This document shows, one piece after another, positions 2,520 through 59,817 of a DNA stretch of 64,000 nt (the first letter of the stretch is position 1; the number at the start of each line of letters is the position of its first letter). The stretch is from Minisyncoccota bacterium (GTDB lineage Bacteria > Patescibacteriota > Minisyncoccia > UBA6257 > 1-14-0-10-44-23). The position numbers were made by a program, and so were the translations under genes. The stretch is taken from NCBI GenBank assembly GCA_041389085.1, contig JAWKSL010000001.1, positions 228,542 through 292,541 of the forward strand, read 5' to 3'. The notes beneath the pieces were generated by a model that ran no database searches, was not told the DNA's origin, and worked only from the letters and a program-made list of their open reading frames with translations.

Positions 2520-4148
2520 CTATTTTCTTTGCTTTGCGGCTTTTATAAGCCCGCTAAAGAGTGGGTGTGGGCTTAGTGGTCGGCTTAGAAACTCTGGGTG
2601 AGCCTGAGTTGCTACAAAATATGGGTGGCCCTTTAACTCAATAAACTCCATAAGTTTCCCATTTGGAGATTTGCCTGAGAAAATAAGGCCTTTCTTTTCT
2701 ATCTGCTCTACATATGCGTTATTTACTTCGTAGCGGTGGCGGTGGCGCTCGATAACGCGTGGCTTTTTATACAAACTTTCGACAAGGCTTCCTTTTTTGA
2801 GCTTTGCTGGGTAGTTTCCAAGACGCATTGTCCCGCCATAGTGCTTCTTTGCGAGCTTTTCTTTTTGGCTTTCCATAACGTCTATTACTACGTGTGGAGC
2901 TTTCTTATCTATCTCTGCAGTGTGTGCGCCCTCAAGGCCGACTACGTTTCTCGCGAACTCTACAACTGCAAGTTGCATGCCGTAGCAAAGGCCAAGATAT
3001 GGGATCTTGTTTTCTCTACAGAACTTTATAACGTTTATTTTCCCCTCTATCCCCCTGCTTCCAAATCCTCCTGGCACGATTATTGCGTCGCACTTCTTAA
3101 GTTCTGCGAAGCTTGCCTTTTTGTTTTCAAAATCTGAACTATTAAGCCACCCTATTACTGGCTTAAGCTGCTTTTCATAGGCTGCGTGCTTTACCGCTTC
3201 GATAACAGAAATATATGAGTCGGTAAGAGTAAACTCTCCCGTAGCAAAATACTTCCCAACTATTCCTACCGTAACTTCGCCTTTTGGATTTTTAATGCGA
3301 GATACAAAACGGCGCCAATCTGAAAGGTTTGGTTTTCGTTTTCGTAAATTGAGCTTCTCTATTATTCGGTCTCCTAGGCCGTCGCGCTCAAAGTTGAGCG
3401 GAACTTCGTAAATACTGTCTACGTTTGGCGCTGAAATAACGTCTTGCCCTTGAAGGCCGCAGTTGAAGGCTATTTTCTCCTTTCGCACCTTGTCGAGCGA
3501 CACGTCTGCGCGCGCAATAATTATGTCTGGCTGAATTCCCACTGCGTTTGCTTGGCGTACTGCATTTTGAGTTGGCTTACTCTTAAGCTCTCCGTCCTTT
3601 TGCAACGGAAGAAAGCCAACTAAAACAAACAGGGCGTTTTGTGGGTTTTTAATTTTGAGCATTCTGTAAGCCTCAAGGAAAAGAATGTTTTGATACTCAC
3701 CTATTGTTCCTCCTACCTCTACTACAACAAAGTCGCTTTTGTGTTTTGCAGCACTCGCTTCGAGTTTGTCGATAACAAGCATTGGGATTTCTGGTACTAC
3801 ACTTACGCACTTTCCTTTGTATTCTAAGTTCCTCTCCTTTCTTATCATTTCAAGATAGAGAGAGCCTGTTGTCATATAGTCGCTGGTGTAGAGCTCAGTG
3901 TTTAGGAAGCGCTCGTAGTTCCCCATATCTTGGTCTGTTTCAAGACCGTCTGATAAAACAAAAACCTCACCGTGTTCGGTGGGGTTCATAGTTCCTGCAT
4001 CAACGTTTACGTACGGGTCTATCTTTATTGCGCTGACAGAAAATCCACGTGCTTGTAAAATTTTGGCTACTGAAGACGCGGTTATTCCTTTTCCGATTCC
4101 GCTCATCACTCCTCCGGCAACGAATATAAATTTGGTTGACTTATCCAT
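2520..4148 (-). CDS. pyrG: CTP synthase
   Basis: N-terminal KFIFVAGGVMSGIGKG and a C-terminal glutamine amidotransferase domain (GLCYGMQ). The likely start is MDKSTKFIFV. Confidence 0.9.
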   Translation of the reverse strand: MDKSTKFIFVAGGVMSGIGKGITASSVAKILQARGFSVSAIKIDPYVNVDAGTMNPTEHGEVFVLSDGLETDQDMGNYERFLNTELYTSDYMTTGSLYLEMIRKERNLEYKGKCVSVVPEIPMLVIDKLEASAAKHKSDFVVVEVGGTIGEYQNILFLEAYRMLKIKNPQNALFVLVGFLPLQKDGELKSKPTQNAVRQANAVGIQPDIIIARADVSLDKVRKEKIAFNCGLQGQDVISAPNVDSIYEVPLNFERDGLGDRIIEKLNLRKRKPNLSDWRRFVSRIKNPKGEVTVGIVGKYFATGEFTLTDSYISVIEAVKHAAYEKQLKPVIGWLNSSDFENKKASFAELKKCDAIIVPGGFGSRGIEGKINVIKFCRENKIPYLGLCYGMQLAVVEFARNVVGLEGAHTAEIDKKAPHVVIDVMESQKEKLAKKHYGGTMRLGNYPAKLKKGSLVESLYKKPRVIERHRHRYEVNNAYVEQIEKKGLIFSGKSPNGKLMEFIELKGHPYFVATQAHPEFLSRPLSPHPLFSGLIKAAKQRK

Positions 4149-4294
4149 GTTCTTTCTCTTGCTTGCTCTACCGCCCACCACTCTTTCTTTGCTGCGTTCT
4201 CAGTCTCGATGATAAATTTCTTTATCGCCTGCGCCTTCGCGCCTTGCAAAGAAAATGCTGTGCGCTATCCAAACAAAAAAAGAACACGGACAAA

Positions 4295-5254
4295 TCAACT
4301 GTTTCTTTTCCTGCTTTTATAGAGCCTACTTTCCTTCTGACATTTCGGGCACAAGTGCGTGCCTCTCCCACCTACTTTAATGCGTTTGATGGTAGTTTGG
4401 CAACTTTGACAACTTTCCCCTTGTCTGCCATAAACAAGTCGCCATTTTGTATACCCTCCCTCCTTTCCTTCGGTGTCGCGAAAGTCGCTTGTAGATGTAC
4501 CTCTAAGCCTTACTGCTTTGCGAAGTATGCTTTTTATTGCTCCGTGAAGCCTTTTTAGCTCATCTTTGGTGAGTTTCTTGGGGTTTTGCTGCGGATGAAT
4601 TTTTGCTCTGTGTAAACTTTCGTCGGCGTATATGTTTCCTATGCCTGAAATGAGCTCTGGTTTTAAAAGCGCCTGCTTTATTGTCGGCCCTGAGGTTTTT
4701 ATAAGCTCTTCAAACTTTTTTAGGGTGAGGTCTGGGCTCAGTGCGTCTATGCCGAGGCTCGCTATGTCTTTTGTAGCGTGTATTTGCCCGACGCTTGCAA
4801 CCATCGCCTTAGCAAACTTGCGCATGTCTGAAAGTGCGAGCTGCGTTTTATCTGAAAACGTTATGATGAGGTGAATAAATCCGTTGAATGGATCGTTTTT
4901 TATCGCTTCTGGCTCTAGGCCTTTTGGTCTTCCCTTTTTTATTTCCCATTTCCCAAAGAGAAGGTGTCCCGTCATCTTTTGGTGTATAAGCAAAAGCTTG
5001 TTTGAGCTTAAGTAGACTAAAACATTTTTACCCTTTCTCTCTGCGCGCAATATTTTTTCTCCTACAAGATCGCGTTTGAAGTGGCGAAAGTTTTTTTGCG
5101 CCTCTTTTATGTCTGCGTCTGAAATTCTCCTACTTGGGTGTAGGTGGTCGCGTACAAGCTTTGGGTTGTCGGTCCACACATCTTTAATGCGCTTGCCTGC
5201 AACCTTTTTATTTAAGTCGTTTACGACTGTTTGCACTTCGGGGAGTTCGGGCAT
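4295..5254 (-). CDS. mutM: formamidopyrimidine-DNA glycosylase
   Basis: MPELPEVQTVVNDL start and a C-terminal CPKCQ zinc finger. Confidence 0.8.
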   Translation of the reverse strand: MPELPEVQTVVNDLNKKVAGKRIKDVWTDNPKLVRDHLHPSRRISDADIKEAQKNFRHFKRDLVGEKILRAERKGKNVLVYLSSNKLLLIHQKMTGHLLFGKWEIKKGRPKGLEPEAIKNDPFNGFIHLIITFSDKTQLALSDMRKFAKAMVASVGQIHATKDIASLGIDALSPDLTLKKFEELIKTSGPTIKQALLKPELISGIGNIYADESLHRAKIHPQQNPKKLTKDELKRLHGAIKSILRKAVRLRGTSTSDFRDTEGKEGGYTKWRLVYGRQGESCQSCQTTIKRIKVGGRGTHLCPKCQKESRLYKSRKRNS

Positions 5255-5366: not shown

Positions 5367-5879
5367 GTGAAAGCTGCAATCCTTTGCCTTCTTGGCGCCC
5401 TTGTTGGCGTCTATCTCGTTGGTGTGCACGGCCTCCCTGCAACGAAGCTTGCGCACGTACTCGTGCTAGGAGGCATCGTCCTCGCGGCCGCTTTCTCTCT
5501 CCACTTTGCGACTCGTGCGAATTGCGGAGTGCCCATCTGCGACGATTCAGGCGATCCTCCGCTTGGCATTGTCGAGGTCGTTTCGGCTACGCGCGTTGAC
5601 TTTGATACTATGGGAGTCTTCATCAAGAAACCCAATGGAGAGTTTGATGAGCGCCTCTATCTTGAGGTGAATGAACGCTTGTTTGACCCCGCTATTAGTA
5701 AGTTCGCCCACCTTGAGTACCAGGCCCTACCCCACTCACTGACACCTCACTGGCGACGGCTTGCGCTCGTGAGCATCCCTGACGACCTCAGCACTGAGCC
5801 CATCGACTTTACTGAAGATGAGCCGGTGGCGCTCCCGCGGGCCGACAAGCCTCACGCTACCGCCCCTAAGGTGCCGTAG
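5367..5879 (+). CDS. hypothetical membrane-anchored protein, GC-rich (cassette C)
   Basis: GTG start preceded by ggagga; hydrophobic N-terminus; own terminator. No recognisable domain. Confidence 0.4.
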   Translation: MKAAILCLLGALVGVYLVGVHGLPATKLAHVLVLGGIVLAAAFSLHFATRANCGVPICDDSGDPPLGIVEVVSATRVDFDTMGVFIKKPNGEFDERLYLEVNERLFDPAISKFAHLEYQALPHSLTPHWRRLALVSIPDDLSTEPIDFTEDEPVALPRADKPHATAPKVP

Positions 5880-5885
5880 TACCGT

Positions 5886-5930
5886 ATCAGCCGCCGTTTG
5901 CACATGCGAATGGCGGCTGATTGCTTTTTA
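5886..5930. terminator. bidirectional terminator
   Basis: Hairpin atcagccgcc...ggcggctgat followed by ttgcttttt. Confidence 0.6.
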
Positions 5931-7259
5931 GTCTTGCCCAAAGGTGCCCACCTCGCGCTGAGGGATAAGGCCCGAATCTGTAGGAAGCGTAAAGTGGAAG
6001 GTAGAGCCTCTACCAAATACTGACTCTACCCATATTTGCCCGCCGTGCTGGCGGATAATGTTTTTCGCTATATAAAGTCCAAGACCACTTCCGGTGGTGT
6101 CTTTTTTTGTAACTGTTTCACTGCGGTAAAACTTTGTAAAAAGCTTATCTACCTCGTCTTGCTTAACTCCTACCCCGGTATCTTCAACAGTAATTTCTAC
6201 AAATGGCGCAGCTTCCTTTTCTTTTATTCTTACTATTACCTGCCCGTTTTCCACGTTGTACTTTATTGAGTTGTCGAGCAGGTTTGAAAGAACCATGGCT
6301 ATTTTTGAGGCGTCCATTGTTATCTGAATTTGCTTGTCTGGCTTTTCAAAAAACACATTTACCTTGCGCTGCATAGCTACTGGCGCTGCCTCGTCTACAA
6401 CTTTTTGGATAAAGCTGGTTATCTCTTCTTCCTTAAACTCAAAACCAAAGCGACCCTCCTCAATTTTGGTGACGTCTAAAAAGTCGCGAACTATGTTGCT
6501 AAGCTTCTGCGCTGCCTGTGAGCCTGCGGTAAATACACTGCGGCGAGTTGCATCGTCCAAATCTGGCTTTGCAAGCTCTTGGAAGGCCCAATTTATAGCG
6601 CTGAGTGGGGTGCGCAACTGGTGGCTTGCTACGGTAATGAATTCGTTTTTGCTTCGCGCGAAATTTACTGCACGCGTTCTGTCGTGGATGATTTTTACAA
6701 AAGCTCCCTGGCCGCTTTCTCCGCTAATTGGGATAGTTATAGACTGAAGCTCCATAAACGGATTTTCAAAAGAAAGATTTACTACCTGCGGATACTCGCC
6801 TGGTTTTGAAATTGGGTGAATAGATGGGGCAAGCGATGGGAACATAACCTGCCTAAGCAGGGTAAGGCTTGGGTTGCTTGCACTTGTTTGTATAGAAAAT
6901 ATCTTCCCCACTATCTCAGACTCCTTCACCTCGAAAAGAGTTTCGGCTTTTTTGTTGAAATTGAGCACTTTAAAATCGCTATCGTAGGCAATAACCGCAT
7001 CGTTTAGGTTTCGCACTATTGAGGTAAGAAGGTCGTGTTCAAGGTTGAGCTTTCCTTTTGTTTTTGCGCGGCCAAATGTAGCAGCAAAGAATATCGCAAC
7101 AAGAGAAGTAAGTAGAATGCCGGCTATTGCTTTAAATATAGCTGGCATATAGATAAGACTGAGCACGAGGAGCGCAACAATGACAAGAAGGGCTACGTAA
7201 AAGAAACGAGCGCTTTTGCTTTTAAGAAAAATTTTGGCTTCTCTGAGTATCTTTTTCAT
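5928..7259 (-). CDS. sensor histidine kinase (two TM helices, PAS-like, HisKA, HATPase_c)
   Basis: HQLRTPLSAI H-box, and DTGVGV...GSGLGL G-boxes. Confidence 0.8.
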   Translation of the reverse strand: MKKILREAKIFLKSKSARFFYVALLVIVALLVLSLIYMPAIFKAIAGILLTSLVAIFFAATFGRAKTKGKLNLEHDLLTSIVRNLNDAVIAYDSDFKVLNFNKKAETLFEVKESEIVGKIFSIQTSASNPSLTLLRQVMFPSLAPSIHPISKPGEYPQVVNLSFENPFMELQSITIPISGESGQGAFVKIIHDRTRAVNFARSKNEFITVASHQLRTPLSAINWAFQELAKPDLDDATRRSVFTAGSQAAQKLSNIVRDFLDVTKIEEGRFGFEFKEEEITSFIQKVVDEAAPVAMQRKVNVFFEKPDKQIQITMDASKIAMVLSNLLDNSIKYNVENGQVIVRIKEKEAAPFVEITVEDTGVGVKQDEVDKLFTKFYRSETVTKKDTTGSGLGLYIAKNIIRQHGGQIWVESVFGRGSTFHFTLPTDSGLIPQREVGTFGQD

Positions 7260-19752: not shown

Positions 19753-20167
19753 AGACTTTATAGAGGGAATAGTGACACGAATGGGCTTTGCAGACGCCCA
19801 GGTTAGCGTTGATGAAGAAGGCCGAAGAATATCAGTTATTATCGACGATGGTGACTGGGTGGCGAAAAAAGTTCCCGACCTTGTTTCTGCCCTTCGACAG
19901 CTTACACGAGGGCTTGCGCGAAAGAATTCACTCGAGAATTACTTTATCGACATAAACAACTACAAGAAGGAAAGAGAGCGTCTCATTGTTGAGATAGGCC
20001 AGGCGGGTGCAAAGAAGGCAGTATTTGAAAAAGTAGAAGTGGCCCTGCCAGCAATGAACTCTTACGAAAGAAGGCTTGTACACGCAGACCTGTCTATGAG
20101 GCCCGATGTAAAGACTGAGAGCGCCGGAGAGGGCAAAGAAAGACACATAATAATAAAACCGCTGTAA
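19736..20167 (+). CDS. jag: Jag/KhpB-like KH/R3H RNA-binding protein
   Basis: Position after yidC, with a C-terminal R3H-like region. Confidence 0.65.
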   Translation: MDLQLKDFIEGIVTRMGFADAQVSVDEEGRRISVIIDDGDWVAKKVPDLVSALRQLTRGLARKNSLENYFIDINNYKKERERLIVEIGQAGAKKAVFEKVEVALPAMNSYERRLVHADLSMRPDVKTESAGEGKERHIIIKPL

Positions 20168-20195
20168 GCGGTTTTATTATTGAGCTGCTCGATAT

Positions 20196-21371
20196 TTAGT
20201 CTACCCAGGTTGTTATTCCCCCACTCTCTTTTATCTGATTGTAGGCTGTCTCTGTTTGATCCGAGCCATTACTGTATTGAGAAAACATCTGGTCTCTTCC
20301 CGCGAGATACCCAGCGCGCGACTGCTCTACCCATGGATGTGCAGTGTTGTCTGCTAAGTAACTTCTCTGTTCTATTTCAATGAGTTGGCGGGCCACCTGT
20401 TGAGGGGTTTCATTATTGCCCTGTGTTACCACTTCATTTACCACTCCCTCTCTCCTCATTTGGTAAAATTGCTGCTCGGCATACTCATTGAATCCTGTTG
20501 GGTATTCGCTGTTCGCCTCCTGCCATGAGATGTATCCATCTGCTTGGTAGGAAATACGGTTTCCTTCGCTAAAGTTGTATGGGTTTTGATAGTTTCCTGT
20601 ATCGAGGGCGCTTATTCTCTCGGAAAAATAATGAGCTCGAAGAGCGGGATATTGGTTGAATAGAGCTTCTTGCGCTGCGGCAAACGCTGCATAATTTTCT
20701 GAAGAGAGAATTGTAGACTCATCTCTTAGCATTCGTCGTGCGGCTTGAAGCGCCCTACGGTCATCGTTGAGGTTGAACTCGTGTTTATAGCCATTTATAT
20801 ATGACTCTGTTTGGTTCGCTTGTCTGCTCGCCTGTGAGTTTTGTATAGCTTCTAGCTCGGCATCTCTTGCCTCAGCATTTCTTTGCTCTCGCATAGCCTC
20901 GAGCTCACGAATTGGTTCATCTGAGCTCCCAATGTTTAATATGCGCGGATTAATAGTGTAAAGAAGCACAGCAGCTCCAATAAGAAGCACAAGGCCAATA
21001 ATAGCGTCGAATATCCACCCCTTTGCGTCTGCCTGCACAGCTGGCTTCCCTGCTGAAGCTACGTAGCGCACTCCGGCAAAAACAATAATCGCGAGAGCTA
21101 AAAGAGCTCCGATGCCAATAGCCCAGCGATAGATAATGTTTATGTAGTTTCCTAGTCCTTGATGTGCATTTACCGAACCACCTGTTCCTGGAATGTCTAC
21201 AATTAGGTCTACGGTTCCGTCTGGGGTAGTTTTTGCGGCGGCGTCTACAGCGTCAGCATTTGCTTCTTGTGGTGTGGCCTCATCCTCAGCAGAAACACTC
21301 GCCGTGAGTGGGGCTAGTGCGATTAGTCCTGCAAAAAGCGCAGCGAAGAATGTCTTAGTTTTTAGGCTCAT
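20196..21371 (-). CDS. secreted VirB2/TrbC-pilin-like domain fused to a ~240-aa Q/N/Y-rich C-terminal domain
   Basis: A signal peptide is followed by two hydrophobic helices (YINIIYRWAIGIGALLALAIIVFAGV and WIFDAIIGLVLLIGAAVLLY), as in conjugative pilins. The family is not certain. Confidence 0.4.
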   Translation of the reverse strand: MSLKTKTFFAALFAGLIALAPLTASVSAEDEATPQEANADAVDAAAKTTPDGTVDLIVDIPGTGGSVNAHQGLGNYINIIYRWAIGIGALLALAIIVFAGVRYVASAGKPAVQADAKGWIFDAIIGLVLLIGAAVLLYTINPRILNIGSSDEPIRELEAMREQRNAEARDAELEAIQNSQASRQANQTESYINGYKHEFNLNDDRRALQAARRMLRDESTILSSENYAAFAAAQEALFNQYPALRAHYFSERISALDTGNYQNPYNFSEGNRISYQADGYISWQEANSEYPTGFNEYAEQQFYQMRREGVVNEVVTQGNNETPQQVARQLIEIEQRSYLADNTAHPWVEQSRAGYLAGRDQMFSQYSNGSDQTETAYNQIKESGGITTWVD

Positions 21372-23076
21372 TGCTTAATTGTTGGGCGATTAACTCTTCT
21401 GGGTTTGTGGTTATTATCTCATGCTCTGGATAGGACGCTACTATTTGAATAGCAACGTGGTTTAGTCCGGCAAAGAATAGCCCTTGTCCCACCTCTCCTT
21501 CAAGGAGAAGTGATTTTTCTCCATCTGAAAGATCAAATGTCTTGGTGATAGTGTCTATCATCGCTGGTGATTGGCGCAGAAGCAGCTGGAGGCTTGAGTT
21601 TGTGATTATCGGGCGCCCGTATGGCGAGAGAAGAAAGTCTTCTACGTCTTGAGTAATAGTAGTTACCCCAAGGTAGTACTTGCGTGCTCGTTTTACGAGG
21701 CCAAATAGGAATGTTGCACTGTCTTGGTTTTTCATTAAGAGCCACGCTTCGTCGATAACAACAACGCGGCGCTTTAGCTTTGAGCGAATAACTGCCCAGA
21801 TGAAGTTAAGAATTACATACATCGCTATTGGGCGAAGCTCTTCTTCAAGGTCGCGAAGAGAAAATACAATCATGCGGTTTGCGATGTCGATGTTGGTAGC
21901 CTGGTTTGCAAACCCTGCAAAGCTACCTTCGGTAAAGCGGTAGAGTCTGTCTGCAAGCCCCTCCCCTCCTTCAAACCCACGCAAGACGTTTTCCAGGTCT
22001 TTTAATACTGGTGGCTCTGAGTTGCTAAAGTCTTTTCCTGGGATGATGTCGCGCGCTGCATATGTTTCAGTAATAGCGCGGTCGATAAGAGCCTCTTCTT
22101 CTGGGCTAATTTCCCCTACCATGAGGCGGATAAGGCCGGCGAGGTTTACAATGTGGCTGCGAAGAGTTTCTGCTGGATCGTCTCCTTCAGGAATAACTGG
22201 GATTTGAAATGGGTTGATGTGGTCTTTTGATGAAAGTGAAATTCTAAAGTAGCTTCCTCCAACTGCGCGTGTAAGGCGCTCATATTCGTTTTCAGGGTCT
22301 ACAACAAGCACGTCGGTGCCTGTCATTAGAAGGCGGAGAATTTCGAGCTTTGCAGCGTATGATTTTCCAGATCCAGACTTTGCAAAGATAACCATGTTTG
22401 CGTTTTCAAGCTTGAAGCGGTCGAAGATGATCAAGCTGCTGTTGTGGCGGTTTATTCCATATAGGATTCCTTCTTCACTTGTAAGGTTGAGAGAAACAAA
22501 TGGGAAAGAAGAGCTGAGCGGCCCTGAGTTTAGCGGTGTAGTTACTTGCAGCTGATCTTTTGCGGTTGGGAGCGTAGTGTTAAAGCCTTCTACTTGCTGG
22601 AAGAGTGCTGGCTTTGCGTATACAAGGCGGCTTTCAAGAAGATTGGTTATTTCTGACTCTACTTTCTTAAGCTCTTTTAGAGAGTCTGCGTACATCGTTA
22701 TATACACTGCTGATTGAAAAAGGTGCTCGCGCGATTGCTGAAGTGAGTCTCGGAGAGATTCTACATCTTGGTGTGCTGTTTCAAGGAGTGGGCTTCGAAT
22801 GAGGCCTTTTTCTTGTTGCTCGATAAGTTGCGCTTCTATCTGAGTAGCTTTACGGCGAAGTTTTTTGAGTGCGAGCGAAGTCTCAACAGGAGCTACATAT
22901 ATACCTATATCGAGTAGGCCTGGAAAATTTACAATTGGGCTAAACCACCCTGTTGCTAAGTAGCGTGGGTATGAAAATACGAAGATTGTTTTTGCGAACT
23001 TGTTTCCTATTTGAAGGTGGTCGCTGCTGAGCTTTATCGCTGCTGGAGCGATGATGTTTTTTATCTGTTCGTTCAT
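21355..23076 (-). CDS. virB4: VirB4/TrbE/CagE-family T4SS ATPase (C-terminal ATPase part)
   Basis: FAKSGSGKSYAAK Walker A and VVVIDEAWLL Walker B; 573 aa. Confidence 0.75.
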   Translation of the reverse strand: MNEQIKNIIAPAAIKLSSDHLQIGNKFAKTIFVFSYPRYLATGWFSPIVNFPGLLDIGIYVAPVETSLALKKLRRKATQIEAQLIEQQEKGLIRSPLLETAHQDVESLRDSLQQSREHLFQSAVYITMYADSLKELKKVESEITNLLESRLVYAKPALFQQVEGFNTTLPTAKDQLQVTTPLNSGPLSSSFPFVSLNLTSEEGILYGINRHNSSLIIFDRFKLENANMVIFAKSGSGKSYAAKLEILRLLMTGTDVLVVDPENEYERLTRAVGGSYFRISLSSKDHINPFQIPVIPEGDDPAETLRSHIVNLAGLIRLMVGEISPEEEALIDRAITETYAARDIIPGKDFSNSEPPVLKDLENVLRGFEGGEGLADRLYRFTEGSFAGFANQATNIDIANRMIVFSLRDLEEELRPIAMYVILNFIWAVIRSKLKRRVVVIDEAWLLMKNQDSATFLFGLVKRARKYYLGVTTITQDVEDFLLSPYGRPIITNSSLQLLLRQSPAMIDTITKTFDLSDGEKSLLLEGEVGQGLFFAGLNHVAIQIVASYPEHEIITTNPEELIAQQLSNEPKN

Positions 23077-23077
23077 G

Positions 23078-23770
23078 CTAGGCGTTTGGTTGGTCTGTAG
23101 TTAAGACAAGACCTTTCTTTTCTATAGCCTCTGGGTTGTAGAGGTTGTAGAAAAGTTCAGTGGTTTCTTCGTCGTTGAGGGGTACTGCGCGAAGACCTAT
23201 CTGGTTTAGTGAAGACACTACTTCGTCAGTTCTTTGCTTGAGCTGACTCACGTATTCGCGAATGTTTTCGTCTCCTGATGTCTTTGTGAGAGGGTCGAGC
23301 TTATCCTTCGATATGAGTTTAAACAGTCCTCCAGCAGCCTTTTTGCCTGCTTGTGAGAGCTGCACTGGGTCGTATGGTACTACAACGAAGAACGATTTAT
23401 GCATGATAATGTTCTCGTTTACAAGGGTGCGGATAAACTCGCGATACTCTGCTATTTGTGTGCGAAGAAGCGGGTTTGGCTCCTTTACCTCTATTTGAGA
23501 AAGCCCTTCAATGTATCGGTCTACGTTTATCTTGCGTGAGTGTACGAAAATTTGAATTGGAAAGTCGAGTGAGTTGAGGAAGTTTTGATATCCAAATATA
23601 AGAGCCTCCTTCTCTTCTTCACTTTTTAGGTCGAAGTTTATACCAGAAACCATAACGATCTGGCGCAAAGCTCCGTTTTTAAGAATAGCTATACCATCCT
23701 TCACTTCTTTTACTTCAACAAACGATTGTGTTGGAAGTGACTGTTTTGGATTCACTTTTTCCTCTTGCAT
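23078..23770 (-). CDS. probable N-terminal domain of VirB4, encoded as a separate ORF
   Basis: Its stop (TAG) is 1 nt before the ATG of the ATPase ORF. 230 + 573 aa is about the length of a full VirB4. Confidence 0.4.
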   Translation of the reverse strand: MQEEKVNPKQSLPTQSFVEVKEVKDGIAILKNGALRQIVMVSGINFDLKSEEEKEALIFGYQNFLNSLDFPIQIFVHSRKINVDRYIEGLSQIEVKEPNPLLRTQIAEYREFIRTLVNENIIMHKSFFVVVPYDPVQLSQAGKKAAGGLFKLISKDKLDPLTKTSGDENIREYVSQLKQRTDEVVSSLNQIGLRAVPLNDEETTELFYNLYNPEAIEKKGLVLTTDQPNA

Positions 23771-23794: not shown

Positions 23795-24310
23795 CTAGCG
23801 ATAATCGACGCGCTTGTATACGCGGCGTTCACCAGTAAGCTTTCTTTGTACTTCGAACTGCTCTACTGGCTCTTTAATTCGGTTAAATATCTTTAATCCC
23901 CCCTTCTCTCTTAACTTTATTGGCTGAGTTGTGGTGTTGAGCTTATCCCAAAGGTTTTCGAGCGGTTTTATCTGAGCTTCTTTCTCGCGAACCACCTTTA
24001 TATCAGGAAGGTTTGGAAGAAGTTCCTTTGTTTCTTCTTTTTTCCAAATATAAAACTTCGGTTGCCAGGTGAATTTGACTGCTGAAACGAGCAAGATAAT
24101 AAACGGGCGGCCATTTACCTTTATAAATGCAAAAGAGCTGGCAAGTGTGCCAACTACTACGGTGATTATAAGCCAGAGCCAGAGTTCAAAAAGGAAGAAA
24201 AAAAGAAAACTCGCGAGAGCTGCTATTGCGATGTAGATAAACTGCTTGAGCGTAAGAGGCCCAACTATCTTGTCTTCTATTTCGATAAATTGAGGTACTT
24301 GGAACTGCAC
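23795..24310 (-). CDS. PrgI/VirB3-like small membrane protein
   Basis: Two N-proximal TM helices (FIYIAIAALASFLFFFLF / LWLIITVVVGTLASSFAF) and a position next to VirB4. Confidence 0.45.
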   Translation of the reverse strand: MQFQVPQFIEIEDKIVGPLTLKQFIYIAIAALASFLFFFLFELWLWLIITVVVGTLASSFAFIKVNGRPFIILLVSAVKFTWQPKFYIWKKEETKELLPNLPDIKVVREKEAQIKPLENLWDKLNTTTQPIKLREKGGLKIFNRIKEPVEQFEVQRKLTGERRVYKRVDYR

Positions 24311-24334: not shown

Positions 24335-24721
24335 TTAAGAATTAAGAGTTTTGGTCTTTTTTATCAACCCATTTAGTAGTTTACTACATTCAATCGCCAT
24401 GTCTGCTAGGTTTTTAAAACCATTTTCTTTTATATGTCCTAAGTCTCTAGCTATAAGTAGTTGGCTTTGTAGTTCAGTTAGAGACCCTAAGCTCATAGAG
24501 TAAAAATGCTGCCTGTCTTTCGGGGAGTGCCTACTAAAGCCCTCTGCTATATTTGAACATGTAGACACCGAGGCTCTTCTCATTTGGCTTGTAAGTGTAA
24601 ACATCTCTTCTTTCGGGAAAGCCGATGTGGCTTTGTATATTGCTAAGGTCAGCGAATGACATCTCCTCCACGCGATAAGGTCTGTGAACGATTTAATTTT
24701 CCCTGTGTTTTCTTTTTTCAC
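24335..24721 (-). CDS. four-helix-bundle protein (23S rRNA intervening-sequence protein / Avd-like family)
   Basis: 128 aa; the ...AEGFSRHS...FYSMSLGSLTELQSQL pattern is typical of this family. Confidence 0.7.
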   Translation of the reverse strand: MKKENTGKIKSFTDLIAWRRCHSLTLAIYKATSAFPKEEMFTLTSQMRRASVSTCSNIAEGFSRHSPKDRQHFYSMSLGSLTELQSQLLIARDLGHIKENGFKNLADMAIECSKLLNGLIKKTKTLNS

Positions 24722-24753: not shown

Positions 24754-25590
24754 TTATTTCGGTAAGTTGTCTTTGTCTCCTAATATTGTTCTAAATGCGC
24801 TGTAGTGCACTACTTTTGGCTCTTCGTGCCTACTTTCAACCCTGCCTGGCTGCACCTGGGCTTCATTTTTATTTATGCCCTTAAAGAAGCTTCCGAAGCG
24901 GGCTTTTTCTTGCGGAGCTTGTTCTTGCTTCTGGGGTTGGCTTGCTGAGTGTGGGAGCTCAAAGCGAAACGCAGGGCCCGCGCTTTCTGCCGAAGGCTGC
25001 TTTGGTGCCTCTTCGTGAAGCATAAAAGGTTTCTCGGTTGTTTGCTGGTTTGTGTCGCTCTTTAAGTCTGGCTTTTGTGGTTGCTGCTTTGGCGCAAGGT
25101 CCGGCACAACACTTCCTTGTGCTGGTGTGGCTTGTCCTTCCAGCTGGGTTGTTGGTGCTGAGTCGGCTAAAGATCCTTTTCTTGCTTGCGCAAAGGCTGA
25201 AATAGAAGGCTTCTGTTGCGAAAGTGAATCTACTCCCCCTCTCGGTGTACTGATTTTTTCTATATCAACGCCCTGTACTGTTTTTAGGCCGATTGTAATC
25301 GGTGCCAGTACTTTATCTTTCAATATTGCTGCAATTTCTCCTGCTTTGTCTTCAGATATCTTTAAATCAGTAGCAAGCGCCTTTGTGAAGGCTTCTGGCG
25401 GGGTTAGCGTGAGTACGAGGCGCGTAATGTCGCGCGCGATTACAGGTAGGCGCTCTCCAAAAAACTGGTTTTCCTTGTTGATGTGTTCGATGACTTCTAC
25501 CACTCGGTCTGAAGTAAGCCAGTTCTTAATAGCCTCTGGAAGAAGGTAGAAAGTTTTTTGAGCTGTTTGTTGGCTAGAGAGAATATCCAT
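24754..25590 (-). CDS. hypothetical protein, Q/P-rich low-complexity C-terminal half
   Basis: ORF only; lies inside the T4SS-like cluster. Confidence 0.3.
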   Translation of the reverse strand: MDILSSQQTAQKTFYLLPEAIKNWLTSDRVVEVIEHINKENQFFGERLPVIARDITRLVLTLTPPEAFTKALATDLKISEDKAGEIAAILKDKVLAPITIGLKTVQGVDIEKISTPRGGVDSLSQQKPSISAFAQARKGSLADSAPTTQLEGQATPAQGSVVPDLAPKQQPQKPDLKSDTNQQTTEKPFMLHEEAPKQPSAESAGPAFRFELPHSASQPQKQEQAPQEKARFGSFFKGINKNEAQVQPGRVESRHEEPKVVHYSAFRTILGDKDNLPK

Positions 25591-25592: not shown

Positions 25593-28079
25593 TTAAGTGT
25601 AGCTTTGGTGTGTGTCTGCTCCTGCGTTATAATTTTGTTTTTTTGAGGATGGCTTTTGACCGGCCCCTGGGTCTCCTGGTGTTTGCATTAGTTTGTGCCA
25701 AGCCACTACCATGTCGCGGTCTTGTGTTAATTTCGCGATCTGCTCCTTCTGCTGCTTGCTGTCACCCCCCTGAGAGCGAATGGCGTTTATCTGGGTTTGT
25801 ATTTGAGCAGCGGCTGCTTCAGGACTTGCAGTTTGCCAGCTACCCTTTCCAAGACTTTCTTCTATAGCCTGTATCCAAGCCTCTTGTGTTGATGCTTTTG
25901 CATTCATTATCATCGCAGTTGCGCCTCTTACCTTCATGGCTTGTGCCAAGGCATATTTCTGCGCTGTATCGCCTAGGTCTTTAATAGGAAGATCGGCGAT
26001 CTTCTTTGCATCCAAGGATTCAAAGATACCTTTAATGATTTTATTTTCCGCCTCGGTGAGGTCGCTAGGCATGTCATTGCGTGCTTTTGCAAGGAATCCT
26101 TTAGCAATTTTGCGACTCTCTTTCTGGTCTTCAGTGCGAGCTTTTGTATTTTTATCCTTGAGCGCTTTCGCTATAGCCGCAAATTCAGGGTCCTTTTCGG
26201 AGAGCCCTCGAGCGATACTTTCTGCTAACTGTACACTTCCATTTGCGTAAGCGGCCTCAAGAAGTGCTTTTTTGTTCTTAAAGCTACTATCTCCGCTCGC
26301 TGCGCCCACATCGCTAAGAGCATTTGTTTTCGACAGGAGCATGCCAAGTGCAGCTTTTTCTTTGCTCGACATGGTGTCAATCTTGCTGAGCATGTCGAGA
26401 GCCTCTGGTTTTGATTTATCTTTATATTGATCGTTGAAGAACTTTAGGGTTGCCTCCTGGCTTGCCTTTTCTCCAAACGGAATAGATTTCTTTCCTACCG
26501 CGAAGTCTTCGGTCCACGCAAGCTTATCTTCTGCTATTTTTGGAATGTCTTTTAGGCGCGACTTTGAATCGAGGACTTCCCCTAGGGCTTTGCGCGGTGC
26601 AGCGGAAATTTTTCCTGCCCCCTTACCGAACCGTGCTATACCGCTTCCTACTGTTGCGAGTTTGTTAAATCCAAACTTAGAACCGGCTGCCCCAAGCCCC
26701 GATCCAATACCGGCAACAGCACCGGTGCTTGTTGCTTCAAATGCCTTTAAGGTTCCCCGCGTTGCTCCTCCTAGACCAACCTTACCAAGTGTTTTTGGTA
26801 TGCGTGAGCCGATAAATGCGCCGACTCCAAATGCGAGGCCTGCGCCCATAACTCCTCCAGCCTTTCCTGCCTTCATGGCTGCCCAAAGGAGCCCGAGAAG
26901 GACGAGGATTTGCATAACGTTGTTAAAGAAGTCGGTTCCGAGTAGTCCTCCGCTTCGTGAAGTGACGAGCATGGTACTAATCGCGAGGAAGACAAAGAAG
27001 GTTACCGTTGGTAGATAAATAAGCCACTTTATAAAGTTGTCCCACCACTTCTTTTGATATTCGCTTAGGCGAGGAATGAGTCCGAGTGCCCATACGAGTG
27101 GCATAAATATGAGAAGCGTTGCTATCCAAATGTTTCGCACAAGGACCATAATTCCAATTGCAACAAGGACCCCTGCCATAAGCCAGGTGATGATGTCGGC
27201 AAGAATCAGAGCTTGTACAAGTTTAAACCACACCGACCAACCTGTTTCGTCATTGTTTATATTGAATTTTAAGTCTTTACCGAGTTTAAATGCCTCTTCG
27301 TCTTCTACAAGTCCGCTTGATACCTTTGTGCCTTCATCGTTTAGCTTCACCGACTTATACTCAAAGTCCCCTGCATTTTTAATGCTTAGCAAACTTTGAG
27401 GTTGAAGCGCACCTCCGATTTTATCCGGGTGGATAGATTGGAGGAAGTTTGCTGTAAGTACATTTGATACATCGATAAATAGCCCAGCAATGAGGAAGCT
27501 GAAGTTTACGAGAATAGCTGCGAAGATGAGGCGTTTAAGTTGATTTTTGATATTGTAGCTCTTGCTTCGAAGCATGGTGCCAAAAGCCATAACGATTATG
27601 GCGATGACGAAGAAGAGGTTTGTAAGACTAAGGCTTACTTTAAAGCCGGCGGTGATTATCGGTAGCGTGATGATCGTGATTCCATACTTCACCATTGTGT
27701 ACACCATCCATGATCCAAAAGTGAGGATAAGTGCCCCTATTTTACCCACGAGGCTTAAGAAGAGCATGGTCACCGACTTAAAGCCAACCAAGATCCAGCA
27801 GTAGACGTCTGTTACTGATTTATCGCACTGGCCATACTTAATGTCGATACCTTCAAGATCAAAAAATCCATTCCCTTCTCCTATGCCAGGTACTGATGTC
27901 CCCGCAAAGTCTGCTGCTGAGGGTGGGTTGATGTTTGCACTTGCAGATGCTCCCTCCTCAGTTTCGTCATCTGCGAGCGCAACATTCACCCATGGTGTTG
28001 AAATAGGCAGGAGCGACAGTAGCACAAGCGCGATCATCGCTGCGGCAAATATTTTTTTTGTGATTTTTTTAGCTAGCAT
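25593..28079 (-). CDS. polytopic membrane protein, VirB6/TrbL-like, with long hydrophilic C-terminal extension
   Basis: Signal sequence, six or more TM helices, and cluster context. Confidence 0.5.
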   Translation of the reverse strand: MLAKKITKKIFAAAMIALVLLSLLPISTPWVNVALADDETEEGASASANINPPSAADFAGTSVPGIGEGNGFFDLEGIDIKYGQCDKSVTDVYCWILVGFKSVTMLFLSLVGKIGALILTFGSWMVYTMVKYGITIITLPIITAGFKVSLSLTNLFFVIAIIVMAFGTMLRSKSYNIKNQLKRLIFAAILVNFSFLIAGLFIDVSNVLTANFLQSIHPDKIGGALQPQSLLSIKNAGDFEYKSVKLNDEGTKVSSGLVEDEEAFKLGKDLKFNINNDETGWSVWFKLVQALILADIITWLMAGVLVAIGIMVLVRNIWIATLLIFMPLVWALGLIPRLSEYQKKWWDNFIKWLIYLPTVTFFVFLAISTMLVTSRSGGLLGTDFFNNVMQILVLLGLLWAAMKAGKAGGVMGAGLAFGVGAFIGSRIPKTLGKVGLGGATRGTLKAFEATSTGAVAGIGSGLGAAGSKFGFNKLATVGSGIARFGKGAGKISAAPRKALGEVLDSKSRLKDIPKIAEDKLAWTEDFAVGKKSIPFGEKASQEATLKFFNDQYKDKSKPEALDMLSKIDTMSSKEKAALGMLLSKTNALSDVGAASGDSSFKNKKALLEAAYANGSVQLAESIARGLSEKDPEFAAIAKALKDKNTKARTEDQKESRKIAKGFLAKARNDMPSDLTEAENKIIKGIFESLDAKKIADLPIKDLGDTAQKYALAQAMKVRGATAMIMNAKASTQEAWIQAIEESLGKGSWQTASPEAAAAQIQTQINAIRSQGGDSKQQKEQIAKLTQDRDMVVAWHKLMQTPGDPGAGQKPSSKKQNYNAGADTHQSYT

Positions 28080-29536
28080 GAGAATATTTTGCTATCGATA
28101 TAGTCGTCTGCCTGGTTGTATGAAGCTTGAGCTTCCATCTTTTTGCTTTGTACGAGTGGTGGAGTTGCAAGTGAGCCTATTTCTACCTGAAGGCGAACAA
28201 TCTCTCTCCATGCACTTGCCCCTTCGTCGGTGCTTAGCTCTTCTATTTCTACTTTGTAGGCTTCAAGCGATTGAATGTCAGCGAGGATAGAAGCATCTTT
28301 TGCTGCAAGGATGGCGATGTTTGCCTGCACGGCTTCTCTTTCATCGTCTACATCGCAAATGCTTTGCTTACCATCAAGGTCGTCGTCGTAGTCTTCCCAA
28401 AGTGCTTTTTCTGCACGCACAATTTCAACCATCTCTTCGTAGAGGGCGATGCTTGCGTCTATGTTTGCTACCATGTCTTCTTTTGCATTCTCAAACGGCG
28501 CGCCAATACTTGTTTGGTAAGCTTGGCAGGCTGCGAGCGCGTCTGAGCTTAGACCTGAGCACGGATTTGCATTTGTATTTACAAAGTCTGCACCGCGGTT
28601 GTCGTTTCGGCTAAGGCCACGAAGCCCTTCTACTCCGGTGCGTACAAGACGGTTGAAGAGCGCGTTCGCTATAGCTCCCGCGTATTCTGAAAGTTGGTCT
28701 GCATTTACGATAAAGTCGAAGTCTATTCCTACTGCATCCTTCACGAGATCGCCCACCACTGATCCTGGGGTGGTAATTGTACACTTTACGTCTCCTGGTA
28801 TACCGTCTCCGTCTATGTCTGGGCCGGTGCCTCCTTCCTCTTGGCAACTTTTTGTTCCGATAAATCCATCTCCAGCTCGGGCGTCTTCAAGCGCGGTGAA
28901 CTGAGCGGCAGATATTCTTCTGTGCTTCTCTTCCTCTAATAGAATGTAGCTACCAAAGATATTGTTTTGCGGCTCCCATGCAGCTTGGTAAGCAACCCAA
29001 CTTCCGTTTTCAAAGTCGGCGTAGAAGTTTTCGATATTTCCAACTATGTCGTCGAGCGTACATCTTGCTTGGTTTTGGAAGCGAGACTCTGGTGCGAGTG
29101 CAATTCGTAGCTGCGCGCTAAATGGGCTGCAGAGAAAGCCGAGCCCTATTTCTTGCGCCAAATCTCCCACTGCTTGGCTAGCGATGTCGTCAAGAAATGC
29201 GCTCCAGTCGGTTACGAAGCGTGGTTCGTCTCCTCCGTTTATCCATTGAATAATGTCGTCTACCATCATGTCTAAAAGACGCTTTTTGAGCGTCTCGAGG
29301 ATAAATGACTGAGCCCATTCAAAGCTTTGTTGAGTCGTTTCTGCCGTTGTCGCTGCTGCGATTGTTGCGATACTTCCGTCTATTGATGGAAGGCTACTGA
29401 TAAAGTCGAGGTGTCCGCCTACTACGTGTACGGTGAGCGCTTGGGCCTTTTGTGGCTTGAGAGTGAGAGAAAGTGGCGCAAGCGTAGCTACTACGAGAAG
29501 AGTGGCAGTAAGTTTTTTAAGTGTTTCAAAATTCAT
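28073..29536 (-). CDS. secreted hypothetical protein (T4SS-cluster associated)
   Basis: Signal peptide MNFETLKKLTATLLVVATLAPLS; no recognisable domain. Confidence 0.35.
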   Translation of the reverse strand: MNFETLKKLTATLLVVATLAPLSLTLKPQKAQALTVHVVGGHLDFISSLPSIDGSIATIAAATTAETTQQSFEWAQSFILETLKKRLLDMMVDDIIQWINGGDEPRFVTDWSAFLDDIASQAVGDLAQEIGLGFLCSPFSAQLRIALAPESRFQNQARCTLDDIVGNIENFYADFENGSWVAYQAAWEPQNNIFGSYILLEEEKHRRISAAQFTALEDARAGDGFIGTKSCQEEGGTGPDIDGDGIPGDVKCTITTPGSVVGDLVKDAVGIDFDFIVNADQLSEYAGAIANALFNRLVRTGVEGLRGLSRNDNRGADFVNTNANPCSGLSSDALAACQAYQTSIGAPFENAKEDMVANIDASIALYEEMVEIVRAEKALWEDYDDDLDGKQSICDVDDEREAVQANIAILAAKDASILADIQSLEAYKVEIEELSTDEGASAWREIVRLQVEIGSLATPPLVQSKKMEAQASYNQADDYIDSKIFSC

Positions 29537-30309
29537 TAGAATGTGATGCCGTTGTCCTCGATGTATTTATTCATTTGGTTTGAAAGTGTGATGAACTCAT
29601 CGTCTACCGAGTCTGCAAAATCGAGTGCGAGGAGTGCCTGAAGCGGATCGGTCTGATAGTTTGCGAGGAGCGCATATATGTTTCGCTGCGTAAGAAAGAG
29701 CTCTATAAGGTTTGCGTGAAACCCTGAGATAACGCGCGGAACAGGGAGTGCGTATAAATCGGCGATAATTTTTTCGTAGGTGCTTACAAACACTGGGAAG
29801 TTTGTCGCTTCGGGTTTTTCATAGTTTATAGACAGCCCTTTAAGGTTTTTCTTTATTAGGCTGTTCATTTCTTCAAAGTAGTCGGCTTGCGCCTCCTTGT
29901 CTGAAGTAGAGGTAAAAACTATTTGACCCTCATCTACCTTCCCGCGTAGCGCACTTGCATCAAATTCTTCAATAGCTTTTTGAAGAGTGGTTGCTACAAG
30001 CTGGTCTGGGTCTATCGCTGCGATCTGTGCGCCGCTCTCAGTCTGGAGTGGTCCGTCTGGGTTTTTGTCGACAAGATCTTTCGCAAGTGCCTTGCTTATC
30101 TCTTGTGTTAAGTTCCCATCAGTCGGACTCTTTACTGAGTTGAGGCTTTCAACGGTAGAAAAGCTTGGGACTTTTACTATTTCAGTCTCAATTATTTCTT
30201 TGTCGCCAAAGGCCCATACTGTTGCGGCAAACACAAGACACAAAGCAATCAAGGCGGTAAGAGTTGCCTTTAAAATTCGCTTTGCTGATACCTGGTTAGT
30301 CTGCAACAT
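29536..30309 (-). CDS. membrane-anchored hypothetical protein (T4SS-cluster associated)
   Basis: N-terminal TM helix; its start overlaps the stop of the next ORF. Confidence 0.3.
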   Translation of the reverse strand: MLQTNQVSAKRILKATLTALIALCLVFAATVWAFGDKEIIETEIVKVPSFSTVESLNSVKSPTDGNLTQEISKALAKDLVDKNPDGPLQTESGAQIAAIDPDQLVATTLQKAIEEFDASALRGKVDEGQIVFTSTSDKEAQADYFEEMNSLIKKNLKGLSINYEKPEATNFPVFVSTYEKIIADLYALPVPRVISGFHANLIELFLTQRNIYALLANYQTDPLQALLALDFADSVDDEFITLSNQMNKYIEDNGITF

Positions 30310-31163: not shown

Positions 31164-31243
31164 AAGAGTTTAGAGATAAGAGTTACGACGTAAGAATAGC
31201 TCATAACGAAGCCTAAAGGCAAAACTTTGCGTTGCTCTAGAGT

Positions 31244-31265
31244 TAACTCTAGAGCTTAATATAGA
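31244..31265. repeat. perfect 22-bp palindrome gctctagagttaactctagagc (cassette B 5' element)
   Basis: Homologous to 1954-1987, including upstream context (aaggcaaa...ttgctctagag). Confidence 0.6.
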
Positions 31266-31300
31266 GCAGTAGTGCGCGAAGAGTTATTTCTTGACAATAA

Positions 31301-31329
31301 GGCTAATTTATTTTATTCTCTTGGCAGAG
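31301..31329 (+). promoter_or_regulatory. sigma70-like promoter of cassette B
   Basis: TTGACA, 17-nt spacer, tattct. Confidence 0.45.
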
Positions 31330-31356
31330 CGATGGTGCTCTTGAGGAGGTGTTGGG

Positions 31357-31605
31357 ATGTTCCGATCCACCACCTATTTGCTTCTCCTCGGCTTCTCTCT
31401 TGTTGGAGGGGCTGCGGTCATGACAGCTCTTCTGATGGTCAGCCTTGCGCTGACCGCGCACCTGCCGCCATGGCTTGAACTCGCGGCTCGCCTCGCGCTG
31501 GTTTTCTCAGTGCTGCGCTGGGCAGGCCCGGCCCTCGGGAGGCTTCTCATTCCGATGTTCCGAGCTTACATTTCAGCTCGGAACGCCAACCCTAGCGACT
31601 TGTAG
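31357..31605 (+). CDS. small (82 aa) membrane protein, GC-rich (cassette B), weak paralog of 2084-2317
   Basis: SD gaggagg; hydrophobic; shares an AHxPPWL motif with the cassette A protein. Confidence 0.5.
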   Translation: MFRSTTYLLLLGFSLVGGAAVMTALLMVSLALTAHLPPWLELAARLALVFSVLRWAGPALGRLLIPMFRAYISARNANPSDL

Positions 31606-31626
31606 TCGCTGGGGTTCAACTTTTCT
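31590..31626 (+). terminator. conserved terminator hairpin (~90% identical to 2331-2368)
   Basis: ccctagcgacttgtagtcgctgggg followed by ttcaactttt. Confidence 0.7.
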
Positions 31627-50636: not shown

Positions 50637-51416
50637 TTGATTTTTAGGCCTGGTTTGGTTTATAGTAGCCATACTATGCCAGAGAACGATATACGCTCAC
50701 TGCTTATCGATGGGCTTAAACGTAAGCACCTTACCCCTGAAAGGCTTCAGGGGCTTACTGAAGTTCCTATGCACTACCTCGACAGTCTCCTCGCTGGAGA
50801 CTGGGCTGATTTGCCTGCGCGTCCATACGTTCGTGGCTACCTTATAAAAATTGCTCGTGAGCTCGATCTGGACGAAGACGATCTTTTAGATCGCTATCAA
50901 AACCAATTTCTTGCAGCTTCTGGATCTTTTGACTCACTTCCAGGCAATCGCTTTGCGCTCCCCTCTTTTAAATATCGAAAGCTTCTTATTCCTTTCGCGG
51001 TATTGGTAGTAATTATTTACGCTGTTTTCTTTACCATCTCTTCACGCACTCCTTATCTGGAGCTTGTAACTCCACCAAACGAAAGCCTGGAACCATATGC
51101 AGTAAACACGCCAGAAATAGTGCTCGAAGGTAGTGTTGAGGAGGGAGACAATGTTTTCATTAATGGCGACCAAGTAGAGGTAGATAGTACTGGCACGTTT
51201 CAATATCCATATACTCTCTCTTTAGGGCTTAACACTATAGAGTTTCGTGTAAGCCGCTTCTTGGGTAAGGAAATACGGGTTATAACCCAGGTATTTTTTG
51301 AACGCACACCGGTGATTATTGAGGATAGCAGCGACGATTCTCAGCTTTTAGAGGCTACTGATGAGCCTGCAAGTAGCTCGGTTGAGCTTGATAGTGAGGA
51401 TGATACAATAAATTAA
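50637..51416 (+). CDS. RodZ-like HTH membrane protein
   Basis: N-terminal HTH ([23 protein letters not shown]), one TM, and an acidic C-terminus. Confidence 0.45.
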
Positions 51417-59520: not shown

Positions 59521-59532
59521 TGTAAACCATAA

Positions 59533-59583
59533 ATCAAAAACACGACGCAAGGTCGTGTCTCTGATTTTGTCGGGCCGCCGGGA
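59533..59583. repeat. 51-bp direct repeat copy 1 (tRNA-Pro 3' end + terminator hairpin)
   Basis: atcaaaaacacgacgcaaggtcgtgtctctgattttgtcgggccgccggga is identical to 59710-59760. Confidence 0.8.
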
Positions 59584-59709
59584 CGCTTCGCTATCTCACT
59601 CTCTGAAAACCCACGGTTTTCCAGCGCATGCTTCGCGTGCTGCCTTCCTACACGGGGAACTTCCGTTCCCCGACCCCCTCCCGTCCGATTCCCGGCCCGT
59701 ACTTTAGTA

Positions 59710-59760
59710 ATCAAAAACACGACGCAAGGTCGTGTCTCTGATTTTGTCGGGCCGCCGGGA
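59710..59760. repeat. 51-bp direct repeat copy 2 (includes the genuine tRNA-Pro 3' end and its terminator)
   Basis: Perfect match to 59533-59583. Confidence 0.8.
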
Positions 59761-59817
59761 ATCGAACCCGGGCCGCACGCTCCCAAAGCGCGCATACTAC
59801 CATTATACGACGGCCCG
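59747..59817 (-). tRNA. tRNA-Pro (TGG)
   Basis: Manual cloverleaf: anticodon loop UUUGGGA, T-loop TTCGATT; the D-stem is imperfect. Confidence 0.7.

Follow-up and report, generated by a model that had tools for sequence, protein, structure and literature searches.

The type IV secretion systems (T4SSs) of Patescibacteria are of the Gram-positive type (MPF-FATA-like) and comprise TrsD, PrgI, VirB6 and VirB2-like pilins; their genes often lie beside dnaA, usually with no relaxase (PMC12102498). These systems and their VirB2-like pilins were described already in 2023-2025. Southlakia epibionticum, a Saccharibacterium, cannot grow epibiotically without its T4SS genes, among them those of a pilin array (PMC10633639; PMC12857230; PMC11665869), and observation of a Saccharibacterium with its host revealed an 8.6-nm-wide tube between the two (PMC11880426). 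A PrgB-like adhesin has not been found in Patescibacteria (PMC12102498). Here, we discuss a pilin-like gene in a 64-kb stretch of DNA from a Minisyncoccota bacterium (contig JAWKSL010000001.1; the whole stretch is referred to as the window). The open reading frame (ORF) covers 20196..21371 on the minus strand and encodes 391 amino acids (aa).

The Patescibacteria pilins described so far, i.e., the array of S. epibionticum ML1 and those in the catalogue of Quinonero-Coronel et al. (2025), belong to the same family (Pfam PF18895) as the window protein and share its layout and its type of operon near dnaA. They are small and often occur in arrays of 2-11 divergent paralogs. In comparison, the window has one gene, the product of which carries a 251-aa C-terminal domain (here called the tail) and an extra acidic N-terminal segment. 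In its clade, diversity resides in the tail and not in the number of paralogs. The conjugative pilins of diderm bacteria (TrbC/VirB2, PF04956; F TraA, R27 TrhA and the T-pilus VirB2) have in common with the window protein the helix-loop-helix layout, the positively charged loop, the dependence on VirB4 and the signal peptide, although the host in the window, unlike theirs, is a monoderm. Known conjugative pilins are ~65-75 aa long in their mature form, sometimes trimmed and cyclised, and we know of none with a folded domain of at least 25 kDa.

For the loci examined, the best explanation is that the gene product is the one VirB2-like (PF18895) subunit in a chromosomal, origin-proximal T4SS of Paceibacteria-type Patescibacteria. 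The hairpin module is that of the T4SS pilin family, and both module and locus are known biology. What sets the gene apart is a sole T4SS pilin with a selectively maintained, lineage-specific ectodomain, which we did not find described: in the literature searched on Patescibacteria T4SSs, the pilins are described as small, C-terminal extensions are not mentioned and no adhesin is reported.

A pilin-family hairpin followed by a long tail

The window protein is identical to NCBI MEZ4156623.1, which is encoded on a 312-kb contig and labelled 'MAG: pilin [Candidatus Paceibacterota bacterium]'. On hydropathy and sequence, residues 1-28 are a predicted Sec signal peptide with an A-x-A site (21288..21371, minus strand, as are all parts of the gene given below). 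It has K4 and K6, the hydrophobic core FFAALFAGLIALAPL and a predicted cleavage site between SVSA and ED, and in the alignment the A-x-A site lies at the matching place in 15 family members. Residues 29-78 (21138..21287) form an acidic segment at the N-terminus of the mature protein, variable in the alignment, with an isoelectric point (pI) of 4.05, which ends in a conserved L-I-x-x-I-P-G motif. The pilin hairpin follows at residues 79-143 (20943..21137), as delimited by hydropathy, PF18895 and AlphaFold. Its hydrophobic helices are placed at residues ~79-105 and 117-142 by hydropathy and at 73-105 and 110-140 by AlphaFold, with a predicted local distance difference test score (pLDDT) of 80-87 for the hairpin. 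The basic loop between the helices (residues 102-118, R102-YVASAGKPAVQADAK-G118, pI 9.7) reads RYVASAGKPAVQADAKG in full, and near-invariant loop residues in the family include, e.g., Y103, G108, P110, A116 and K117. Hydropathy and the pI of the loop bear out what the preliminary description of this DNA had read from the sequence, namely a signal peptide and two hydrophobic helices with a short basic loop in between.

The same description proposed that this part of the protein belongs to the VirB2/TrbC-type pilins, and membership in the pilin family holds up. Pfam PF18895 (T4SS_pilin) matches residues 72-139 with 37.0 bits (gathering cut-off 26.6), and the core taken alone scores 41.4 bits. 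All 24 aligned family cores match PF18895, and 10 of the 24 also match PF04956 (TrbC/VirB2; best E 7e-6). In addition, there is a weak NCBIfam match to NF045849, a family of "pilin-like conjugal transfer proteins" from a Mycoplasma integrative and conjugative element. The protein shares with PF18895 members the profile score, the signal peptide with two helices and a basic loop, and the proximity to virB4, whose 3′ end the start of the pilin gene overlaps by 17 nucleotides (nt) within a T4SS operon. It is not, as would be expected of the family, a small protein that ends soon after helix 2, since 251 residues follow that helix. The long tail is a departure in architecture that leaves the PF18895 domain itself unaffected.

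Structural comparison, which had also been proposed, did not decide the matter. The hairpin is modelled with confidence, and its fold is too simple to discriminate: fold searches with it matched generic helical hairpins and did not single out conjugative pilins. A profile of the family core searched against PDB sequences returned noise and no solved pilin, and the same search with the whole protein likewise gave noise only. The 91-aa pilin core, too short a query for a word-indexed homolog search, found nothing significant among 5.8e9 sequences. Support for the proposed link to VirB2 comes from sequence bridges at the family level and from the gene context.

The family was sampled in 65 VirB4 loci taken from GTDB species genomes, the ORFs of which were searched with an iterated hidden Markov model of the core (58 domain hits); L-numbers denote loci from other genomes and P-numbers family proteins. 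The order PrgI, TrsD, VirB4, pilin, then the convergent jag-yidC-rnpA and dnaA-dnaN, is found in the window and also in L001, L003, L004, L068, L069 and L070. All seven syntenic loci (the window's 64 kb and the six relatives) have a sole pilin-like ORF, which is the extended one. The genes for P0003 (L004), P0009, P0012 and P0015 are likewise the last after VirB4 and face jag-yidC, with dnaA beyond where the contig reaches it.

Most of the sampled PF18895 proteins are 100-170 aa long and have 0-26 residues after helix 2, and many of these short pilins are arrayed in tandem, most notably in Saccharibacteria and Berkelbacteria. In the sample of VirB4-fetched loci, 9 of ~50 pilin-like ORFs continue for more than 100 residues past helix 2. 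Tails of this length were seen in the clade of the window and in a group of Moranbacteria proteins, where they are 165-182 aa long, Cys-rich and end in HxH. The long Moranbacteria pilins are located at L010 12507-13409, L019 12078-12935, L016 13489-14772, L022 7410-8684 and L040 13331-14650, and some of them have Cys-rich N-terminal extensions too. By eye, the L010 tail (SAHYSGNAFDV...ADHIHVRF) resembles the zinc-binding motifs of LAS/M15 cell-wall peptidases; this reading was confirmed by Pfam for none of the Moranbacteria tails, and a PDB sequence search with the L010 tail was negative. A further variation is the presence of tandem PF18895 domains in a single ORF, i.e., fused pilin pairs, at L005 4530-5411, L007 4660-5652 and L039 100-831. 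'Pilin' labels on PF18895 proteins hence hide a subclass with large extra domains.

Conservation and divergence of the tail

The tail (residues 144-391; 20199..20942) has the appearance of an orphan acidic helical ectodomain, as judged from its composition, homolog searches, substitution rates and AlphaFold. Residues 151-391 contain 10.0% Q, 8.3% N and 6.6% Y compared with 3.9, 4.2 and 2.8% in the long ORFs of the window. The Q/N/Y-rich composition noted earlier is therefore real, at ~2.3-fold enrichment, although A, E and R are equally rich and the sequence has no low-complexity or prion-like character: its mean entropy in 30-aa segments is 3.55 bits, against 3.53 bits in other ORFs of the window. 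Normal entropy, predicted helices and purifying selection (see below) rule out a prion-like or low-complexity Q/N reading. The tail has two Lys in 246 residues, no Cys, a pI of 4.6 and a net charge of -16. Three other ORFs of at least 200 aa in the window are similarly lysine-poor (1.9-2.6%), at 50637-51416, 54630-55436 and 61945-62754, all on the plus strand.

Both AlphaFold runs place helices throughout the tail, including a charged helix of ~49 residues (151-199) directly after helix 2. In the two models, pLDDT reaches ~85-88 within residues 160-260 and is poor beyond 262, which suggests a folded-looking helical domain. An exhaustive phmmer search with the tail against 1.84 billion representative proteins recovered only its own 50% cluster. 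The tail opens with a junction motif, T-I-N-P-x-I-L. At the end of helix 2, residues 142-147 (window 20931-20948, minus strand) form the motif T-I-N-P-x-L, which is common to long pilins with unrelated tails (window/P0002, L010, L016, L019, L022, L040 and P0016). This junction could be a processing site or a hinge.

The closest ortholog, P0002, has 431 aa and is 79% identical to the window protein; it is present on two independent contigs from other samples with identical synteny. Its tail is of the same type (90% identity), and the main difference lies in the acidic N-terminal segment. Across 245 codons of the tail, the ratio of nonsynonymous to synonymous substitutions (dN/dS) for the window and the P0002/L001 ortholog is 0.033, in a comparison in which synonymous sites are near saturation (dS >1). 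With the same ortholog, the ratio is 0.057 for the hairpin, 0.20 for residues 1-59 (59% identity), 0.006 for VirB4 and 0.016 for DnaA, and dN is ~13-fold higher in the tail than in VirB4. Purifying selection on the tail is clear and strong.

Beyond this closest relative, tails diverge. A profile search recovered 16 more family proteins. In 16 members, the median pairwise identity is 74% for the hairpin and 16.4% for the tail, the latter being the level of shuffled tails. Of all pairs, 53 have cores that are at least 75% identical; by BLAST, the tails are related in 5 of these and unrelated in 48. The positional orthologs nevertheless all have in-frame tails, of 106-268 aa. Whether relatives carry the same extension, a check suggested in the preliminary description, is answered in the affirmative for P0002 alone; the tails of the other positional orthologs are unrelated to that of the window protein. 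The clade has four tail types and several singletons, and the Cys-rich tails of Moranbacteria and P0016 represent further kinds. Traits shared by the clade's tails are general ones alone, i.e., an acidic character, the absence of Cys and a charged helical segment at the start, with Q/N/Y richness limited to the window's own type.

A few pairs bear on how the tails came to differ. L003, with a VirB4 85% identical to that of the window, encodes at the same position a 390-aa protein with a 268-aa tail, which shows weak collinear similarity to the window tail (25% over 88 aa, pairwise E 0.004) and shares a [YH]P-x-LR-x-x-YF motif with it. In addition, residues ~311-390 of the window protein are 34% identical to the P0005 tail (E 9e-8). 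For L069 and L070, VirB4 is 96% and the cores are 89% identical, and yet the tails cannot be aligned, and within the gene no DNA homology extends beyond the hairpin. The weak similarity between the window and L003 argues for divergence, whereas hhalign among three tail types shows none (probabilities <1%). Because synonymous sites are saturated in the informative pairs (e.g., L069/L070), very fast divergence and outright replacement of the tail as a cassette are inseparable. Within the window, there is no evidence of a recombination cassette or of silent copies. A diversity-generating retroelement, to which an Avd-like gene of the operon had drawn attention, was rejected, as no template/variable repeat pair was found and none of the repeats in the 64 kb reaches into the gene; scans of the neighbouring ORFs (12.6-33.5 kb) gave no reverse-transcriptase domain.

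The T4SS operon and its surroundings

The pilin-like gene (20196-21371, minus strand; PF18895) is the last of an operon, all genes of which are on the minus strand. Next to it is the C-terminal ATPase part of a VirB4-type ATPase (573 aa; 21355..23076), which matches Pfam P-loop_TraG, AAA_10 and DUF87 as well as NCBIfam conju_CD1110 (381 bits, cut-off 325). One base apart from this ORF is that of a 230-aa protein with NCBIfam TrsD and VirB4 N-terminal matches (23078..23770), orthologs of which are labelled PF26593 TraC-like. The short VirB4 might suggest a truncated gene; this was rejected, since the N-terminal domain is encoded separately as TrsD, which is normal in Patescibacteria. A PrgI/VirB3-like membrane protein (23795..24310; Pfam PrgI, 39.6 bits, cut-off 27) and a four-helix-bundle protein of the 23S-rRNA-IVP/bAvd-like kind (24335..24721; PF05635, 121.7 bits) are followed by a conserved 278-aa operon protein (24754..25590), which has no Pfam or NCBIfam match and has homologs in the same place in L003 and L004. 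The 828-aa polytopic membrane protein at 25593..28079 is VirB6/PrgH-like; its NCBIfam match to the CD3337/EF1877 mobilome membrane protein (E 1e-7) is below the cut-off, and a positional ortholog has a weak TrbL_3 match. Two ORFs of 487 and 257 aa (28073..30309) have no family in Pfam and NCBIfam scans; the product of the former shares 43% identity with that of the corresponding L004 gene. Neither an outer-membrane core complex nor VirB5 was detected in the operon. This arrangement equals that published for Patescibacteria T4SSs (PMC12102498).

Other envelope parts of the machine are also fast-evolving. The VirB6-like and the 278-aa proteins are 27% identical between the window and L004.

The T4SS operon ends at a palindromic, terminator-like hairpin (20149..20181) in the gap where the pilin and jag genes converge. 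Beyond it are the convergent jag-yidC-rnpA and then dnaA, dnaN and ruvC. In L003, the pilin gene is flanked by two extra genes (3789-4469 and 5625-6734), for a 226-aa secreted and a 369-aa membrane-anchored protein. The window has neither, which makes the operon end a variable region.

The IVP/bAvd-like gene is present also at L004 6605-6958, L068 5100-5459 and L069 5210-5545. Its slot is before PrgI in the window and L001, in the gap between PrgI and TrsD in L068 and L069, and in the gap from TrsD to VirB4 in L004. L070 lacks the gene, and the L003 stretch examined showed no homolog. The shifting slot suggests a small mobile or repeatedly inserted gene. Two other repeated elements were observed in the window. 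Paralogous cassettes of ~430 bp at 1910-2365 and 31190-31624, 29.3 kb apart, bracket the region of the origin and the T4SS; their 5′ 81 nt are 78% and their 3′ terminator hairpins 94% identical, the middle is divergent and there is no Rfam match. An exact 52-nt direct repeat is present at 59532-59583 and 59709-59760, the latter copy running into the end of a tRNA gene (59747-59817). The repeat may represent a duplicated tRNA flank or the scar of an integration.

Proposed surface display of the tail and competing explanations

Given that K4 and K6 at the N-terminus and the basic inter-helix loop would be inside, the tail is predicted to be outside the cell irrespective of whether the signal peptide is cleaved. 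We give an even chance to the idea that the protein, as a VirB2-like subunit or anchor, presents an ectodomain specific to its lineage at the surface of the cell or of a filament, probably for host contact. Sec export and signal-peptide cleavage would leave a membrane-embedded hairpin whose two ends face outward and whose basic loop faces the cell interior. This hairpin would be polymerised into a short tube or filament by the VirB4/TrsD/PrgI/VirB6 machine, or kept by it in a channel that spans the envelope. Each subunit would project its C-terminal domain outward on the charged helical stalk formed by residues 151-199. The resulting lineage-specific surface layer would most likely mediate or tune the contact with the host envelope and in this way fill the role of an adhesin, with shielding of the conserved core as a possible further effect.

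Solved conjugative pili have the positively charged loop on the lumenal side and both termini close to each other, away from the lumen; the conjugative pilus has C5 symmetry, a rise of 12.14 Å and a diameter of ~90 Å (PMC12037004). If the window protein polymerised in a pilus-like manner, five ~27-kDa tails per 12-Å rise would form a coat. A volume estimate suggests that the decorated filament would be at least ~16 nm wide, which is possible but unprecedented. Known systems use a distinct protein, VirB5, at the tip. The preliminary description had proposed that the tail acts as a tip adhesin. This proposal is not sustained: the tail is fused to the only pilin-like ORF found in the locus, so that any display on a filament would be on every subunit and not confined to the tip, and no VirB5 or adhesin family is recognised in the tail.

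Several points weigh against display of the tail by a pilin subunit. To our knowledge, a T4SS pilus has been demonstrated in no Patescibacterium, nor in this uncultured lineage. Canonical members of the family end ~0-26 residues past helix 2, and a 27-kDa domain on each subunit may be incompatible with the tight packing of a conjugative pilus. The window protein and its own core have no PF04956 match (E<=1). Half of the tail is modelled at pLDDT <50, and family, PDB-sequence and fold searches recognised no adhesin, lectin or enzyme fold or family in it. The DNA examined is 64 kb of the genome, and short pilin genes may be located elsewhere. Moreover, several VirB2-type pilins require C-terminal trimming or cyclisation (PMC12037004).

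Alternatively, the hairpin might be a membrane anchor and nothing else. The gene product would then be an unpolymerised, T4SS-associated surface protein with a variable ectodomain beside the channel, acting as an adhesin or a spacer. The size of the tail relative to canonical pilins (at most 26 residues after helix 2) fits this explanation, and T4SSs of the Gram-positive type as a rule have no pili and rely on surface adhesins (PMC12102498). In fold searches the hairpin is indistinguishable from any two-helix membrane hairpin, and the charged helix of ~49 residues after helix 2 would suit a stalk rising from the membrane. However, the conservation of the hairpin (74% median identity, with near-invariant loop residues) is far above what an anchor needs, the family is the same Pfam family as that of the short pilins essential in Southlakia, and the gene is the sole pilin-like gene of the locus. 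We regard a pure anchor as rather unlikely, though it is the strongest competitor.

The tail might also be a pro-domain or a released cargo, cut at the T-I-N-P-x-L junction such that a short pilin remains and a secreted, lineage-specific effector acting on the host is freed. C-terminal processing precedes maturation in TrbC- and TrhA-type pilins, but the trimming known removes few residues, five in the case of TrhA (PMC12037004). The junction is common to long members with unrelated tails; in the window's own clade, however, most proteins lack it. The combination of a constant N-terminal module and a variable C-terminal part does resemble polymorphic effectors. Against this stands that Pfam, NCBIfam and homolog searches detected no toxin or enzyme family in the tail, that no immunity-like gene lies downstream, where the terminator and the convergent housekeeping gene jag follow, and that no candidate maturation protease was seen in the operon. 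Cleavage appears improbable to us. The last alternative, a short pilin fused by a lost stop to non-functional sequence (an artefact or degenerating read-through), has next to no chance of being correct: the confinement of tail homologues to one cluster and the poor modelling of the C-terminal half would fit it, but a frameshift or read-through artefact is excluded by selection and conservation data, i.e., the same architecture on independent contigs from other samples, a dN/dS of 0.033 with 90% tail identity at saturated synonymous divergence, in-frame tails in all positional orthologs, partial tail identity to P0005 and weak collinear similarity to the L003 tail. With a confidence that is evenly poised, we favour the display of a domain for host contact over a pure anchor and over a cleaved pro-domain or effector.

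An ectodomain displayed in this manner would have parallels. Polymorphic toxins, the tips of phage tail fibres and the outer domains of flagellins likewise combine a conserved N-terminal assembly module with unrelated C-terminal domains, and the window clade is like polymorphic surface proteins in that each tail type is itself conserved. Unlike polymorphic toxins, the window gene has neither a toxin domain nor a downstream immunity gene. As for the PrgB-type adhesins of Gram-positive bacteria, a T4SS of the MPF-FATA-like type that needs to hold its target has an extracellular domain encoded in its operon. There is no sequence or fold similarity to PrgB, the putative anchoring is by a pilin-type hairpin instead of LPXTG, and the window tail is far smaller.

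A bolder version, which we consider unlikely, is that the single-membrane cells of this Paceibacteria-type lineage make a conjugative-type tube of one pilin, that the exchangeable ectodomain of this pilin coats the whole tube, and that this coat determines which host the epibiont attaches to or feeds from. If true, it would constitute a second route to T4SS surface diversity, the first being the arrays of several pilins in Saccharibacteria. In the one species tested, epibiotic growth depends on the Patescibacteria T4SS, a system for which no adhesin is known. A conserved assembly module joined to a selectively maintained, lineage-specific ectodomain provides a concrete candidate for the element of host contact or host specificity.

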